In this document: in pieces, positions 654 to 7,149 of the stretch
Layout of the letters: each line of letters starts with the position of its first letter
Position numbering within the stretch: position 1 is the first letter of the stretch
From: an uncultured delta proteobacterium
Lineage (GTDB): Bacteria; Myxococcota_A; Polyangia; Polyangiales; B10-G4
NCBI GenBank assembly: GCA_963727445.1
Contig: CAVSGI010000010.1
Coordinates: 960,001 to 1,024,000, forward strand
Direction of reading: 5' to 3'
Length of the DNA: 64,000 nucleotides
Position numbers and translations under genes: made by a program
The notes under the pieces: generated by a model
What the model was told of the DNA's origin: nothing
Seen by the model: the letters and a program-made list of their open reading frames with translations, nothing else
Database searches by the model: none

Positions 654-1985
654 TCAATGCGGTGGTGGAGCGTGTTCGAACTCTTCGTGCCGCGTGTGAT
701 GCTCGGTGAGGTCGGCCTCGAGCGCGCGCCCGGCAGGGACCGAAGTGCGCGCGATGAGGCGCGCGCCGCGACGGAAGGTGATGTAGTTCCACCCCCAGTT
801 GAGCAATACAGCCAGTCGGTTCCTGAAGCCGATCAGGAAGACGATGTGCACCACGAGCCAGGCGAGCCACGCGAGGTGCCCGGCGAGCTTCACATCACCG
901 CTCTGGGCCACCGCGCGGGAGCGCCCGATGGTGGCCATGATGCCCTTGTCACGATAGCGGAACTCGGGACGCTGCCCGGCGGGCGTGCGCCAGCGGATGA
1001 CCTCGGCGACGTGACGTCCCATCTGAATGGCGACCTGCGCGACACCTGGCAGCGGTTGCCCCTCTTCGTCTTCGAAGTAGGCCATGTCGCCGATGACGAA
1101 GACATCCGGCCGGCCGGGAAGCGAGCAGTCCCGCTCCACCGTGACGCGCCCGCTCTTCATCGGCGCGTCGAGCTTCGACGCCAGACTCACCGGAGTGACG
1201 CCGCTCGCCCAACACACCACCGATGCCCGTACCCGCTCCGAGTCGACTTCGATGTAGCCGGCACCGATATCGGTCACCTTCTTTCCCGTCCACACCTCCA
1301 CATCGAGATCGGAGAGCGCCGCCTCTGCCTCGCGCGACAGAGACGCATCGAAGGGGGTGAGGACCCGGTCGGCCATCTCGACCAGGATCACGCGGATGGC
1401 GTCGGGATCGACGAGACGAAAGTCGTCCCGGATCGTCTTGCGAGACAGCTCGCTGAGGGCTCCCGCCGTCTCCACCCCGGTCGGCCCTCCGCCGATGACC
1501 ACGAAGGTCAGGAGCTCCGCGCGGTAGTCGTCATCGGGCTCCCGCTCCGCTTCCTCGAAGGCCATCAGGATTCGCTCACGAAGGGTCAGCGCGTCGCGCA
1601 GCGACTTCAGCCCCACCGCGTGCTCGGCCCACTCGTCATGTCCGAACCACGAGGTTTTCGCGCCGGCGGCGACCACCAGGTAGTCGTAGGCGATCTCGCT
1701 CGCCGCTCCCGAGAACGACTTTCTTCGCCTCTTTGTCGACGTCCACCACTTCGCCCATCAACACCTGCGTGTGCGGGTCGTGCCGAAGCACAGCGCGAAT
1801 CGGAATGGTGATGTCTCCCGGCGAAAGCCCTGCCGTCGCCACCTGGTAGAGGAGCGGTTGAAAGAGGTGGTGGTTCTCCCGATCGATCAGAGTGACGCGT
1901 ACGTCCTTCACGCGGCCCAGCGCCCGCGCCACCGCGAGGCCGCCGAAGCCGCCACCCACAATCACCACGTGCTTTTCCCCTCCAT
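654..1985 (-). pseudogene. ndh: Type II NADH:quinone oxidoreductase (NAD(P)/FAD-dependent), frameshifted near 1700 and probably near 1975
   Basis: ORF 1636..1968 has VVIVGGGFGGL and HLFQPLLYQVAT. ORF 654..1676 has VIGGGPTGVE, VFVIGD, LPGVAQVAIQMG and ATIGRSRAV. The two halves are in different frames. Confidence 0.85.
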
Positions 1986-2086: not shown

Positions 2087-3268
2087 GTGATCCGCATCGG
2101 AACGCCGAACACGCAGACGGAAACCAAGATGCTCCTGCTCGGCTCCGGAGAGCTCGGCAAGGAGGTCGCCCTCGAGGCCCAACGGCTCGGCGTGACCGTG
2201 GTGGCGGTCGATCGCTATCCGAACGCCCCCGCGATGCAGGTCGCGCACCGCAGTCACGTCATCTCGATGACCGACGCAGACGCGCTCCGAACGGTCATCG
2301 AAGAAGAGAAGCCGGACTTCGTCGTACCGGAGATCGAAGCGATCGCCACGCCCACGCTGATCGAGCTCGAGAGGGACGGCTTCCACGTGGTGCCCACCGC
2401 GCGTGCGGCGCGCCTCACCATGGACCGCGAGGGGATCCGCCGTCTGGCCGCCGAAGAGTTGAGCCTCCGGACGTCGCCCTACCGCTTCGCGGCGACGCGC
2501 GAGGAGTACGACGCCGCCATCGCCGAGATCGGGACGCCCTGCGTGGTGAAGCCGATCATGAGCAGCTCCGGCAAGGGGCAGAGCACGGTGAAGAGCGCCG
2601 AGGACGCAGGCGCGGCCTGGACCGCCGCTCAGGAAGGCGCGCGTGGGGGCGCAGGCAAGGTGATCGTCGAAGGCTTCGTAGACTTCGATTACGAGATCAC
2701 CCTGCTCACCGTGCGTCACGTCGGCGGCACCAGCTTCTGCGAGCCCATCGGGCACCGTCAGGTCGGCGGCGACTATCACGAGAGCTGGCAGCCGCAGCCG
2801 ATGAGCCCCGCAGCGCGCGCCGAAGCCGAGCGCATGGCCAAGGCGGTGACCGACGACGTGGGCGGGCGCGGCATCTTCGGCGTCGAGATGTTCGTCAAAG
2901 GCGACGAGGTCTGGTTCAGCGAGGTCTCGCCTCGTCCCCACGACACCGGGATGGTGACGATGATCACCCAGGACCTGTCGGAGTTCGCCCTCCACGTGCG
3001 CGCGATCCTCGGCCTGCCCATTCCCTCCATCCGACTGCACGGCCCCGGGGCCTCCGCGGTGATCCTCGGTGAAGGGAGCTCCGACGCGCCGGCCTTCGAG
3101 ATCGACGAGGCGGCCCTCGAAACGCCCGACACCCAGCTCCGCCTGTTCGGCAAGCCTCAGGTGCACGGCCACCGGCGCCTCGGCGTGGCCCTCGCGCGCG
3201 GCAAGGACATCGAGACGGCGCGCGCGGTCGCGACCAAGGCGGCTCGCCACGTGAAGGTAGTGCTCTGA
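2087..3268 (+). CDS. purT: Formate-dependent phosphoribosylglycinamide formyltransferase (ATP-grasp)
   Basis: [51 protein letters not shown]...RRLGVALA. Confidence 0.96.
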
Positions 3269-5718
3269 GCGTTCGCTCGAAGGGGAGGCTCACGGCAGTC
3301 GTCGGGATCGCTCTCGGCATCGCCGCGAGCCTTCCCGGCGATGAAGCGGCCGCCGACGGGCCAGAGCCCACGGCGGTGTACGTGGGCGTGTACCTGCACG
3401 ACATCACCTCCTTCGATCAAAAGAACGGCGTCTTCGATGCCGACTTCGAGCTCTGGGCCAAATGGCGCGGCGAGCTCGACTACGAGAAGCTCGAGATCAC
3501 CAACGCCGGCGGCGTCGATCGCACCTTCGTCGGTCTGGACGACGACCACGGCTGGAAGTCGGCGCGCTGGCGCGTGCGGGGAACGCTGCGGGGCGAGTTC
3601 CCGCTTCACGCGTTCCCTTTCGACGAGCAGACGATCGCGGTGATCCTCGAGCTGCCCTCGGACGCGGGCCGCCTGGTCCCCGACCTCGCGTCGTCGGGGA
3701 TGGCAGAGCGCTTCAGCCTCACCGACTGGCACTACAACCCCGAGTTCGATCCGGATGTGAGCGAAGAGGTCTTCCCCTCCGACCTCGGCAACCTCGCACA
3801 CGAGGGAAGGCCCACCGAGGTGCGCCGCGTGGCCTACCAGGTCCGCCTCACGCGCCCCATCGTGCCGGTGATCCTCAAGCTCTTCCTGCCACTCGGCATC
3901 ATCATGCTGGTGGCCCTGGCGTCGCTCTTCGTCGCACCCGACCAGATCGAGGCGCGCTCAGCGATGGGCGTCACAGCCCTTCTCAGCTGCTTCGCGTTCC
4001 AGTTCACCATCTCCGACTCGCTGCCGGCTGTCGCGTACCTCACCCTCGCCGACAGCCTCTTCATCCTCGCCTATGTCGTCAGCACCGTGACCGTGGTGGT
4101 GACGATCGTGAGCTACGGTCTCGCCCACAAGGGCATGCACCGAGCGGCGATCTGGACCGACCGGGTCACCCGGGTCGCGGTGCCCATCGCTGCCGCGCTC
4201 GCGATCTGGGCGAACGTGCCCGAGCCAATCCCGCCGCGCGTGGCGGCACCGGACCCGCTCCCCGAGCTGCCGCGCCACGCGAGCGCCCGCGACGAGCTGA
4301 AGATCGGCACCAACGTCCTGACCACTGTGACCAGCAGCATCAACAGCTGGGGGCTGATCCACGAGGACTCCGAGCTTGGTAAGCAGGTGATCTTCGTCGA
4401 GCGCGCGCCCGGGGTCGACAACGACGCCATCCGCTTCCTCGCCGGCGGCGAGATCGAGGTCACCTGGCGCATCCGCGAGGGCGTCGCCTGGTCCGACGGA
4501 ACCGAAGTGAGCGCAGACGACGTCCTCTTCGCCCTCGAGCTGAGCCCCGAGCCGCACATCGTCGAGTCGACCTCGCCCGACCCGCGCACGGTGGTGCTCC
4601 GCTGGGACGAGCGACTGGCGAGCGCCCTCGAAGCGCCGTGGCTCTTGCCGCGTCACGTCCTCGAAGAGATCGCGAATGCGCCGGGTGAAGACGGTGAGCC
4701 CGGCGGCTACGACGCGGTGCGCGACTATCGCCGAGAACATCCGGTTCCGGTGCTGGGACCGTACCGCGTGGTCTCCTTCGAGAAGGAAGGGCGCCTGGTC
4801 GCCGAAGCGAACCCACACTTCATCGGCCCGGCGCCGAACATCGTGCGCTACGAGGTGATCCACTACGCAGATCGCGAAGCGGTGCGCGCCGCTTTCGAAG
4901 CCGGCGAGGTGGACATCACCTACCCGAACTCGCTCACCGTGGAGGACGCGGTGGCGCTGCAGCAAGCGCGACCGGACGCGGTCAGCATCGAGCCCTCGGC
5001 GATCCTGGTCTTCCTACAGCCCGATCTCTCGCTGCCACTCTTCTCCACCATCGAGGCGCGCCGAGCGGTGCTGATGGCCATCGACCGACAGCGCATCACC
5101 GACGTCAGCTACCCCGCCGATGCCGGCCGCGTCGCACACATTCCGGTGCCGGGCGAGCTCCCCGAAGGGACCGAGATCACGCCCTACGATCCCGACGCCG
5201 CGCGCGAGAAGATCCAAGAGCTTGGTCACGCCGGCACCACCATCGAGCTGACGTACGTCGCCTCGCCCACCAGCGACGCGGGCATCGACGTGATCGCGGA
5301 GAACCTGGCGGCGGTCGGTATCACCGTCGAGCGCAACACCGTGAGCAGCACGCTCAGTCTCTGGCGGAGCGGCGATCACGGCGGCCTACTGATGCACGTG
5401 CTTCGCGCCAGCCGCGAGTCGTCTCCCCCTCGCTACTGGGGCGTGCCCCTCGTCGACGGAAACTCCGATCCGGATTTTCGCTCCTCGGCGTACACAGACG
5501 AGATCCACGGGCTCGTGGAGCGCGAGCGTCGCGCGCTCTACCCCGAACGCCGCGACCAGCTCCGGGAGACCCTGCTCTCGAAGGTGTCGCAGAACCTGCC
5601 CATGCTGCCGATCATGTTCGCGCCGGAGCGGATCGCCCACGACCCGGCGTTGAAGAATTGGCGCAACGACGCCGAGGACTCCTTCGCGAGCAGCATCGAG
5701 CAGTGGTATTTCGAGTGA
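3265..5718 (+). CDS. Pentameric ligand-gated ion channel (GLIC/ELIC-like ECD + 4 TM) fused to a C-terminal family-5 solute-binding protein
   Basis: Pro-loop [13 protein letters not shown]1 [15 protein letters not shown]2 [16 protein letters not shown]3 YLTLAD; M4; then the SBP5 signature [22 protein letters not shown] and [14 protein letters not shown]. The ORF track starts at GTG 3376; an in-frame CTG at 3265 adds a signal peptide. Confidence 0.85.
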
Positions 5719-5900
5719 GCTCGGCTTCGAAGATCGAAGTCGGCCTCTGTCTGAACTGCAGATGGGCGAAGGTCGTCGAGAGCGGCAAGGGCTCGCGCTT
5801 CTATCTCTGCAGGCGCGCCGCCACCGACCCACGCTTCCGAAAGTATCCGCAGCTCCCCGTGCTCGTTTGCGACGGCTTCACTCGAGCCACAGACGGATGA
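5715..5900 (+). CDS. Small conserved-looking protein with four Cys (putative Zn-binding)
   Basis: GTG overlaps the upstream TGA (GTGA). Sequence includes GLCLNC...GSRFYLC...DPRFRKYPQLPVLVC. Confidence 0.65.
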   Translation: MSSASKIEVGLCLNCRWAKVVESGKGSRFYLCRRAATDPRFRKYPQLPVLVCDGFTRATDG

Positions 5901-7063
5901 CGCTCTCCTCGGCCGGGACGCCCACCCGCAAGGGGAAGCCGTAATGCCCGGTGCCCCTGTGGACGTAGAGGCGGTCGCGCCCGCGCGCCCAGAGCCCATG
6001 ATCGGGCATCGAGGTCAGACCGCTCACGAAGGTCCAGGCGAGCCCGAGGCTCACCAGACCGACCTGTCCGCCGTGGGTGTGGCCGCTGAAGACGATGTCG
6101 CCCTCGCCCTCGGGCAGGTGCTTGAAAGCGCCCGGGTCGTGTAGGAGCACCACGCGGAGATGGCCCGGGCGCCGCGGGAAGCGAGCGGTGAGAGCGCGCA
6201 AGTGCTCGGCGCGCCCGCGCCACGCGAAGTCAGAGCCGACGATCTGCACAGGCCCCGCCTCGGTCCGCACCACCGCCTCCTGATCGACGAGGAGCTCGAT
6301 CCCGTGCGCGCGGCAGGCGTCGCGCACGATGCCCGGGGCCTCGTGATCGTGGTTTCCAAAGCACGCGAAGACGCGCCCCGTCGCGGCCGCGAGCGGCGCG
6401 AGCGCCTCGTTCAGGTATCGCGGGTCAGCCTGCGACTCCATCGTCATGAAGTCTCCAGTGAGCAGGATCAGATCGGGGTCGCGCGCCACCGCCCGCTCGC
6501 AGAATCCTCCGAAGGCGGCCGACCGACATGAAGGGACCGAGATGAGGATCGGTGATCTGGACGACGCGCAGAGGACGTCCTTCGGAGGACGCCTCGCTTC
6601 GATGCTTCGGATGGCGGGTGACGGCTTCACTGGTCTCTTTCCGGTCGATCCGCAGGTCCACCTCTTCGAAGCTCATCCACATCGATTGCAGGACGCCGAC
6701 GCCGGCGATGGCGAAGGGAAGCCAGGTCGCGATGGGGTCGAAACCGAAGGCCGCCGCCACGGCCCAGGGGATGGCGAAGGTGGTGCCCGCGGCGAAGAAG
6801 CTCCCGGGCACGCTCACCACAAAGCGCCACCAGGTCGGACGCATCCGAGCCCAGATCAGCGATCCGAAGTGGAGAAAGACCGCCCCGTGCATCCAGGCGT
6901 AGACCGGCCAGACCCACGCCGCCTCGGTGAACAGGGCAGTGGCCGAGAGGCCCTCGATGCCGAGGATGATGGCCGCAAAGGTCGCGAAGAAGCGGCCGCG
7001 AAAGAGCCACGCCACCCCCACTACGAGCAGCCAACCGAGCCCGGTCGCGATCGAGAACGCCAT
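5878..7063 (-). pseudogene. Membrane-anchored calcineurin-like metallophosphoesterase (YkuE-like), frameshifted near 6510
   Basis: N-terminal TM helices and QITDPHLG lie in ORF 6425..7102. LTGDF, GNHD, LLHDP, SGHTHGGQ and YVHRGTG lie in ORF 5878..6630. Confidence 0.8.
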
Positions 7064-7149
7064 GGGGCCCCGAGATTGTGGTGTCCGAAGGCGCGACGGC
7101 AACCCGTCTTTTCTGGCCGCCGGCGCTCCGGTCGCGTAATGATCGGGGG

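Follow-up and report, generated by a model that had tools for sequence, protein, structure and literature searches.

A myxobacterial pentameric ligand-gated ion channel subunit followed by a complete family-5 solute-binding domain

What might a bacterial pentameric ligand-gated ion channel (pLGIC) do with a solute-binding protein (SBP) attached behind its last transmembrane helix? The question is raised by one gene of the window (the whole stretch of 64,000 nucleotides analysed here) and, to our knowledge, few natural stimuli of bacterial pLGICs have been identified.

One reading frame and its relatives

A sequence-only reading had seen pLGIC and SBP in one continuous frame, and translation bears this out: 817 codons without an internal stop (3265-5718, +), with coding-like codon-position GC in 8/8 bins (GC3 0.83-0.94). 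The overall architecture is confirmed as signal peptide, full GLIC-like channel subunit, Pro-rich linker and complete family-5 SBP (Table 1). Because no ATG, GTG or TTG lies ahead of the signal peptide in this frame, the gene probably starts at the CTG at 3265, which overlaps the stop codon of purT. A hydrophobic stretch precedes β1 at 58 of the 60 fusion loci examined; at locus L021, a G-run is likewise found upstream of an in-frame CTG. Homologues are not always encoded as separate genes: at 63 of 72 loci of other genomes, mostly Myxococcota MAGs, the fusion is a single ORF, and 119 other full-length fusion proteins were found beside this one. Every full-length copy retains the SBP fold entire, with all three domains.

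Table 1. Features of the fusion gene and its product (window coordinates)
Feature	Position	Strand	Basis
pLGIC-SBP5 fusion gene, 817 codons + stop	3265..5718	+	probable CTG start; 119 other full-length relatives
Shine-Dalgarno-like GAAGG, 7 nt upstream of CTG	3253..3257	+	sequence; putative role
Predicted signal peptide, residues about 1-30	3265..3354	+	model helix 6-22; leader in relatives
pLGIC extracellular β-sandwich domain (ECD), residues 36-197	3370..3855	+	model, fold match; 59% mean pairwise identity, 156 fusions
Pro-loop FPFD, F117-D120	3613..3624	+	conserved 99/99/90/99%
Four-helix transmembrane domain M1-M4, residues 199-317	3859..4215	+	model
Pore helix M2	3946..4014	+	alignment of 156 non-redundant fusion copies
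Pro-rich linker, residues 318-341, near-fixed length	4216..4287	+	spacing, Pro content, pLDDT
Complete family-5 (cluster C) solute-binding domain, residues 342-817	4288..5715	+	Pfam E 7.7e-40; fold Z 28.3
F391, candidate channel-docking residue	4435..4437	+	F/L/Y in 38/38 deep channel copies; kinase copies 1 Leu, F/Y 0/12
R450, candidate channel-docking residue	4612..4614	+	R/K in 37/38 deep channel copies; Arg 0/12 kinase copies
Y759, candidate channel-docking residue	5539..5541	+	Y/F in 37/38 deep channel copies; Tyr 1/12 kinase copies

The channel part

We identify the channel from PDB sequence and fold matches rather than from Pfam scores. Its profile matches GLIC (E 5e-18), and the top 33 of 48,161 chains in a fold search are pLGICs or pLGIC domains, among them GLIC (Z 22.2, rmsd 2.5 over 269 residues), sTeLIC (Z 20.3) and ELIC (Z 19.9). 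These three channels share the ten-strand ECD, the four helices, an acidic ring at -2' and a gate with bulky residues at 9' and 16'; they end at M4, whereas about 500 residues follow here, and identity to them is 18-21%. The HMMER check came out divided: SBP_bac_5 scored above its cut-off (see below), Neur_chan_memb (Pfam) fell short of its own (18 bits versus 28.1, with 49.4 in relative P0056), and Neur_chan_LBD (Pfam) matched nothing in the protein or the genome, its control matching nothing either. LGIC_1 (NCBIfam; E 1.6e-16) was also below its cut-off.

The first reading had described an ECD with the Pro-loop FPFD, four transmembrane helices and an M2 with a 9' Leu gate, all of which are upheld. 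The helices lie at residues 199-222, 228-250, 259-288 and 292-317 of the AlphaFold model; Kyte-Doolittle analysis at a threshold of 1.5 finds only two transmembrane stretches in P0001, and the count of four is the model's. Positions in M2 are given in the established prime numbering. Anchored on the GABA-A α1 pore of chimera 5OSA, M2 aligns as E229-A-R231(0')-S-A-M-G-V-T237(6')-A-L-L240(9'), and over the 156 copies its conservation is 81% at -2' (E/D), 100% at 0' (R), 99% at 6' (T), 89% at 9' (L; 100% as L/V), 100% at 13' (A) and 16' (F/Y), and 76% at 20' (D). R197 (pre-M1), P209 (M1), R231 and P254 (M2-M3) are each present in 100% of these copies, and P118 and D120 of the Pro-loop in 99%. The rings at -2' and 20' are acidic, which suggests a pore selective for cations. 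M2 is decayed in some family members (L090, P0193).

There is no cysteine in ECD residues 36-197, hence no disulfide to close the β6-β7 loop; the protein is therefore a Pro-loop receptor, strict Cys-loop membership is rejected, and the description of a "Cys-loop scaffold" has to be dropped. The mean net charge of the M3-M4 loop (+2.4) is consistent with a cytoplasmic position and, together with the leader and the fold, points to an exported N-terminus and a C-terminus outside; on this topology the SBP is periplasmic, as had been proposed. A single pLGIC gene was found in the host genome (85.6% complete), which would fit a homopentamer. Across the 156 fusions the ECD is the best conserved module and the SBP the least (mean pairwise identity 59% versus 43%). 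Furthermore, near-invariant residues ring the usual agonist pocket (Y43, D60, W64, K66, S172-G175 and E180, with E129 at 84%), so the ECD may itself sense a ligand, or be the real agonist site.

The solute-binding domain and its relatives

The Pro-rich linker followed by some 470 residues of SBP, as first read, is borne out as a domain of 476 residues. The linker is 25% Pro with pLDDT 86-96, and the spacing from M4 to the SBP (D299 to R346) is 45-47 in 145 of the 156 fusions. SBP_bac_5 scores 137.6 bits against a cut-off of 32.4 (E 7.7e-40), and the fold match to 8EFZ (Z 28.3, rmsd 3.1 over 437 residues) covers residues 342-817, with the three-domain fold complete. Ligands of family-5 proteins range over peptides, oligosaccharides, metal chelates, opines and signals. 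Among the fold matches here are proteins that bind nickel, peptides, sialic acid, glutathione or opines, all scoring within 1-2 Z units, and no named family-5 subfamily model (NCBIfam) comes near its cut-off, the best being NikA-type at 35-45 bits versus 600: the peptide or metal-chelate ligand proposed earlier gains no specific support. The SBP positions that are likely to line the cleft vary among family members. OppA, DppA, NikA/NikZ, AppA, AapF and CBP have the same complete fold (Z 25-28) and SBP_bac_5 signature, but at 13-19% identity, and the domain here is tethered to a channel and has no linked permease.

Ionotropic glutamate receptors (iGluRs) are tetramers with a K-channel-like pore set within a small PBP-II domain, and this domain exerts a direct pull on the gate helix. 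A PBP-descended clamshell beside a channel is common to both; here, however, the pLGIC is intact, has an ECD of its own and carries an appended cluster C domain. Membership of the iGluR family is rejected because the SBP is contiguous after the pLGIC transmembrane domain and no pore is inserted in the clamshell; the suggested iGluR-like logic stands as an analogy only. DeCLIC (6V4A; Z 20.2 over the channel part) is also a prokaryotic pLGIC that bears an additional module in the periplasm; that module, as described in the available text of PMC12664993 and PMC9897478, is N-terminal, flexible and built of two calcium-binding lobes, whereas ours is a C-terminal cluster C SBP that is predicted to be docked. 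Binding proteins associated with pLGICs were described in 2004 as N-terminal fusions of PBP-I or Cache domains and proposed to be chemoreceptors; in the available part of that account, PBP-II occurs with pLGICs only as a separate gene, and none of the PBP-fused ART-LGICs of Tasneem et al. has a family-5 domain after M4 (PMC549065). We reject an N-terminal fusion of this kind here: only the signal peptide precedes β1, and the SBP is C-terminal. Family-5 SBPs are also known to regulate signalling proteins, in the pairs DppA-Tap and CBP-ChiS (PMC8050422; bioRxiv 10.1101/2020.01.10.902320, parts available to us), and CBP stays attached to ChiS whether or not ligand is present (same preprint). In both pairs the SBP controls a signal transducer, as is proposed for our domain; unlike it, CBP and DppA are free SBPs that serve transporters too, and what they control is a kinase or a chemoreceptor rather than an ion channel. 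The word "channel" is absent from the review PMC8050422.

The same SBP clade also occurs on 12 single-pass Ser/Thr kinases, in the order kinase-TM-SBP. The 12 kinase SBPs form one clade (support 98) nested among the channel SBPs, and monophyly of the latter is rejected in an AU test (p 7e-8). Channel SBPs are 37% identical to kinase SBPs and 24% to stand-alone SBPs. Judged from these relationships, the clade was captured by kinases, of which it is the likely outer domain; this capture points to a sensory module shared in Myxococcota. Among two candidates scored per genome in 401 genomes of the phylum, no kinase-SBP fusion was found. Of 119 channel-conserved positions, 90 are kept in the kinase SBPs; R450, F391 and Y759 are among those lost, a post-hoc pattern since the kinases represent one event. 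Over all 10 positions lost in kinases, deep channel copies retain 46%, compared with 63% at kept positions, and the three basal copies are without R450 and Y759.

Predicted docking and the role of the SBP

Whole-chain AlphaFold prediction gives a pTM of 0.86, where by our own arithmetic undocked domains would give about 0.62-0.64; in this model, the value implies that the SBP is docked on the channel. Predicted as a complex, three ECDs and the SBP score 0.50 (best control 0.00), with at least 82% of contacts reproduced between runs and a partner pLDDT of at least 85. The score mark is reached by 116 of 157 solved pairs and by 2 of 215 mismatched ones; between the mark and 0.60, however, lie just 18 of the solved pairs and both of the mismatched. 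The prediction weakly supports a docked ECD-SBP complex. Alignment A1 underlies both this and the whole-chain prediction, so the two do not count as independent evidence. Usable inter-domain coevolution was absent from an MI-APC analysis of 156 sequences (effective 71), in which phylogenetic noise was dominant; the top ECD-SBP pair, 154-447, is disregarded.

Because kinase capture and predicted docking both support a sensory role, we judge the SBP to be probably a sensor on the channel. Taking as established the fusion, both folds, the conserved pore and coupling residues, the lack of a conserved transporter partner and the reuse of the SBP on Ser/Thr kinases, we lean, a shade more cautiously, towards a GLIC-like, cation-selective homopentamer whose docked clamshells shift the gate when they close on ligand. 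Each subunit would carry its own clamshell, predicted to dock on the ECD in a fixed SBP-to-channel arrangement; closure on a periplasmic ligand would shift the gate by allosteric coupling, and this coupling could either activate the channel or relieve an inhibition, a role that free CBP plays towards ChiS.

In the best-surviving rival, which we nevertheless consider unlikely, the ECD is the true sensor, responding to a small amine, an ion or pH, and the SBP, though docked, acts as a structural cap or tonic modulator independent of ligand. The greater conservation of the ECD, its near-invariant agonist-site residues and the variable SBP cleft would suit this arrangement, as would the modulatory extra domain of DeCLIC (PMC12664993, PMC9897478, in the parts available). 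It accounts poorly for an SBP fold that stays entire in all full-length copies, and for its retention on 12 receptor-type kinases that have no ECD to cap. Somewhat less likely still is a hand-off, in which the SBP concentrates a solute and passes it to the inter-ECD agonist pocket, clamshell closure playing no part in gating; the idea goes back to a 2004 proposal for PBP and Cache partners, whether fused or in an operon (PMC549065, available text). The conserved pocket and a predicted docking that would put the SBP near the ECD agree with it. Kinase capture, however, fits conformational signalling better, and family-5 cleft ligands are larger than typical pLGIC agonists.

We find it improbable that the SBP serves uptake, either through the pore or by way of an ABC permease encoded elsewhere, with the channel as an anchor. 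Most family-5 proteins are receptors of ABC importers, the host genome has 9 BPD_transp_1 permease matches elsewhere, and at locus L088 an ABC ATPase and permease lie 1-3 kb downstream. As first read, however, no ABC permease is linked to the gene: none lies in the 64-kb window, the nearest in the host genome being about 83 kb off, and one was found near 1 of 73 fusion loci (probed with 8 permeases of the host genome, over 2.5 kb on both sides in 40 of 69 scored loci) and in 0 of 4 regions of 19-20 kb. An Opp/Dpp/Nik importer receptor is rejected on that count, and an ABC uptake component also because a pore with T6', L9' and F16' is, on general grounds, too narrow for such solutes and kinase SBPs are closer than stand-alone ones. 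Nor do the loci have a conserved neighbour of any kind: 565 neighbouring ORFs fall into 449 clusters, each in at most 6 loci, and purT is not conserved upstream. Although apparent frameshifts split two nearby genes in the same assembly, we practically dismiss the idea that mis-assembly or read-through joined two adjoining genes, because most loci in other genomes (63 of 72) and the 119 further proteins show the fusion with equal spacing.

What is new here is the near-fixed spacing with a predicted docked SBP, and the capture of this SBP clade by kinases: we found no paper on C-terminal family-5 SBP-pLGIC fusions, or on kinase fusions of the clade, in a search lying mostly outside subscription journals and wholly outside supplements. 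More tentatively, we propose a new gating mode in which five clamshells, docked on the outer face of the ECD and held to M4 by a tether of fixed length, would be primary sensors of bulky periplasmic molecules (peptides, glycans, prey-derived fragments); the same sensor would later have moved to Ser/Thr kinases, so that myxobacteria might read one cue as both ion flux and phosphorylation. The question of sensing is directly testable, since the fused SBP can be purified alone for ligand screens. Allosteric action by a domain at the M4 end would be a route unseen in solved members of the family and relevant to modulation of animal receptors through M4 and peripheral ECD sites, and a modular SBP-gated pore would be a biosensor scaffold.

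The channel-binding domain fusion and its fold

The sequence-only reading had placed channel and binding domain in one continuous frame, and translation agrees: window 3265-5718 (+) reads through as an uninterrupted 817-residue open frame, whose pentameric ligand-gated ion channel (pLGIC) is followed by a family-5 solute-binding domain (SBP, residues 342-817). The frame overlaps the purT stop codon. The first in-frame ATG, GTG or TTG (3376) lies downstream of the hydrophobic leader, which makes the CTG at 3265, with GAAGG 7 nt upstream, the probable start; at homologous locus L021 there is no canonical start ahead of the leader either, and an in-frame CTG is preceded by a G-run.

Residues 53-313 match GLIC (phmmer, E about 5e-11), as does the channel part through a 56-sequence profile (E 5e-18), and SBP_bac_5 matches residues 399-705 (E 7.7e-40). 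In Pfam, Neur_chan_memb scores under its cut-off and Neur_chan_LBD has no match on the fusion protein, a probable reason for the plain label of ABC substrate-binding protein on most named relatives. The AlphaFold2 whole-chain model (117 sequences; pLDDT 92.6, pTM 0.86) comprises, in order, a leader helix, a ten-strand extracellular domain (ECD), four helices, an ordered linker and the SBP. With the channel part modelled alone, pLGICs or their domains were the top 33 of 48,161 chains, GLIC being first (Z 22.2, rmsd 2.5, 269 residues); the SBP aligns over 342-817 to proteins of cluster C (top Z 28.3, rmsd 3.1, 437 residues; also Foldseek). Both proposed identities are thus upheld: by each of the structural tests applied, the modelled protein belongs to the pLGICs, and its C-terminal part has the family-5 fold. 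Membership as an ABC receptor, a Cys-loop receptor or an iGluR was rejected in each case.

Each of the two split neighbouring genes in the table reflects a frameshift or assembly indel. The Cys-rich frame, which has no Pfam match, may encode a small metal-binding protein.

Features and proteins, with coordinates where available
Feature	Location	Strand	Description
Type II NADH dehydrogenase-like gene	window 654-1968	-	Two frames (1636-1968, 654-1676), consecutive Pyr_redox_2 parts
purT	window 2087-3268		Directly upstream of fusion gene; Pfam ATP-grasp + PurT_C
Short Cys-rich frame	window 5658-5900	+	Just past fusion stop; two CxxC-like or Cys clusters
Membrane-anchored metallophosphoesterase	window 5878-7102	-	Apparently two frames, 6425-7102 and 5878-6630
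P0122	L106:184-3423	+	pLGIC with N-terminal Peripla_BP_6; about 300 extra residues after M4
Further family-5 domain, this genome	G000:C6:739341-740354		Within 1028-residue open frame
Kinase-SBP proteins	P0172, P0178, P0179, P0181, P0183, P0269-P0271, P0273, P0274, P0277, P0279		Single-pass Ser/Thr kinases with C-terminal channel-derived family-5 SBP

Occurrence, conservation and precedents

Of 7,999 candidates scored in a protein search, 210 were relatives; the listed 120, this gene included, each align over 95-100% of the query with 44-85% identity. Scanning species-representative genomes, we obtained 72 fusion loci, 61 of them with a single ORF across 770 or more of the 810 profile positions; two more (L047, L090) are whole, though outside the codon filter, seven end at contig edges, L091 is spread over four frames and L092 breaks early. 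The homologues are therefore not separate genes: the fusion is genuine and conserved, and its function we infer. Most loci are labelled Myxococcota (Polyangiales, Myxococcaceae, Archangiaceae); the other labels are two Verrucomicrobiales and several that are vague or discordant, and every locus comes from a MAG. The labels of distant members are Planctomycetota and a cyanobacterium. Occurrence is scattered: the fusion is in 3 of 41 related genomes and, in an overlapping search whose counts are not additive, seven intact copies plus one broken in 301 phylum genomes, this one counted. The matching automatic cluster in ESM Atlas has 171 members, Myxococcota being commonest. A myxobacterium is thus the probable host of the window.

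Among 156 copies less than 90% identical to each other, mean identity is 59% for the ECD, 48% for the transmembrane domain and 43% for the SBP; distances in the ECD correlate with those in the SBP (rho 0.80), which would fit long co-inheritance. R197, P209, R231 (0'), A244 (13'), F245 and P254 (23') are invariant, and the pore keeps T6' (99%), L/V9' (100%) and F/Y16' (100%). An acidic residue occupies -2' in 81% of copies, and Asp occupies 20' in 76%; we predict cation selectivity, because rings of acidic residues at the cytoplasmic mouth are a mark of cation-selective pLGICs (PMC9897478). The M3-M4 loop is basic (+2.4), placing the end of M4 and the SBP in the periplasm, as first proposed. 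A homopentamer is likely, since a single pLGIC gene was found in this genome (85.6% complete) and no second one at any fusion locus. M2 is decayed in a few members (L090, P0193); L090, L091, P0193 and P0194 combine a divergent M2 with an intact SBP, and P0193 and P0194 form a basal branch whose SBPs are nearer stand-alone ones.

This architecture is apparently undescribed: among the papers listed by our literature searches, none concerns a C-terminal family-5 pLGIC fusion. In the portions consulted, Tasneem et al. (PMC549065) describe PBP-I and Cache fusions that are N-terminal, whereas ours is C-terminal and family-5, and they report PBP-II genes standing alone beside bacterial pLGICs, proposing chemoreception; the DeCLIC papers (PMC12664993, PMC9897478) mention extra domains as N-terminal only, unlike the SBP here, and Jaiteh et al. 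(PMC4795631) discarded terminal regions. P0122 is a second kind of C-terminal pLGIC fusion; its post-M4 region has no Pfam match, and its Cys and His motifs may point to an NlpC/P60-like peptidase. Other pLGICs (L109, L110, L111, L116, L117; P0220, P0229, P0233) carry an N-terminal NMT1_3 (TAXI-type) binding domain, a type common in one family of the phylum.

Kinases that carry the same SBP

Another observation came from a profile search of 1.84 billion representatives: among the best 150 matches, five proteins of 875-924 aa match the SBP part only (E 1e-137 to 1e-153, much stronger than stand-alone family-5 proteins at about 1e-53) and consist of Pkinase plus SBP_bac_5. A second search brought the set to 12; in each, a hydrophobic stretch separates the kinase from the SBP, and together they are apparently a family of receptor kinases. 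Our SBP tree has 76 rows: 52 channel rows (44 of 106 plus 8 sampled others), 12 of 12 kinases, two fragments and, as outgroup, 10 of the 16 stand-alone SBPs; it is a quick LG+G4 tree with SH-aLRT as its only support measure. The SBPs of the kinases group as a single clade (98) inside the channel SBPs, reached through branches of 98, 100 and 99, and channel SBP monophyly is rejected (p-AU 7e-8), in a tree where two long branches meet in the distant part and many rows deviate in composition. With this root, we read the kinase as having taken its sensor from the channel.

Of the 119 channel-conserved positions, kinase SBPs retain 90 and have lost 10. They are 39% identical to this SBP; 38 deep (distant) channel copies are 28% identical and conserve R/K450 (37), an aromatic at 759 (37) and F/L/Y391 (38). 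A393, A539 and A543 are not kept in these copies, their retention over all ten kinase-lost positions is 46%, below the 63% seen for the kept set, and R450 and Y759 are missing from three basal copies. R450, F391 and Y759, chosen post hoc from a single transfer event, are candidates, no more, for docking-face residues. Also of interest is P0222 (1170 aa), a single sequence of odd topology in which a Ser/Thr kinase directly precedes a degenerate pLGIC ECD, transmembrane domain and family-5 SBP; no hydrophobic stretch separates the kinase from the ECD.

Docking and sensing

D299 and R346 lie 45-47 residues apart in 145 of the 156 copies (43-49 over all of them). By the pTM formula, and assuming a within-domain error, domains whose relative position is undefined would score about 0.62-0.64, and 0.86 needs an inter-domain error near 5 Å. 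Three ECDs with an untethered SBP scored 0.50 versus 0.00 for the best of three controls. In calibration, 116 of 157 solved pairs and 2 of 215 mismatched ones attained the mark, but just 18 of the solved pairs, along with both mismatches, did so at 0.60 or under. Runs agree in at least 82% of contacts, with partner pLDDT at least 85; this weakly supports a predicted ECD-SBP complex. Whole-chain and complex predictions were both built on one alignment, A1, and mutual information gave no usable ECD-SBP signal.

We somewhat favor the SBP as a sensor, tethered and docked, that would shift the gate of a cation channel when it closes around a ligand in the periplasm. Two rival explanations stay alive because conserved ECD residues (D60, W64, K66, Y43, E129, the loop-C motif S172-G175, E180-G181) ring what we take to be the usual agonist pocket. 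The SBP could be a ligand-independent cap while the ECD senses, which we think unlikely, or, slightly less probably still, it could hand its ligand to the ECD pocket. That the SBP serves uptake is improbable. As had been claimed, no permease lies nearby: about 83 kb separate the fusion gene from this genome's closest one. Probes made from this genome's eight permeases found one at 1 of 73 loci (L088), in a screen with 2.5 kb on both sides in just 40 of 69 scored loci; there is none in four 19-20 kb regions. An ABC ATPase motif pair occurs at two loci (L023, L088), and no neighbor family is shared by more than six. This genome has two other family-5 loci; the further family-5 domain in the table is possibly also part of a fusion. 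With so many single-ORF loci, an artefactual fusion is scarcely credible.

Family-5 SBPs have signaling roles elsewhere, as in DppA-Tap and CBP-ChiS (PMC8050422); CBP remains bound to ChiS, which it both represses and activates, according to bioRxiv 10.1101/2020.01.10.902320. The fusion is easy to test, and a sensor-driven shift of its cation-channel gate would change membrane potential or ion levels.
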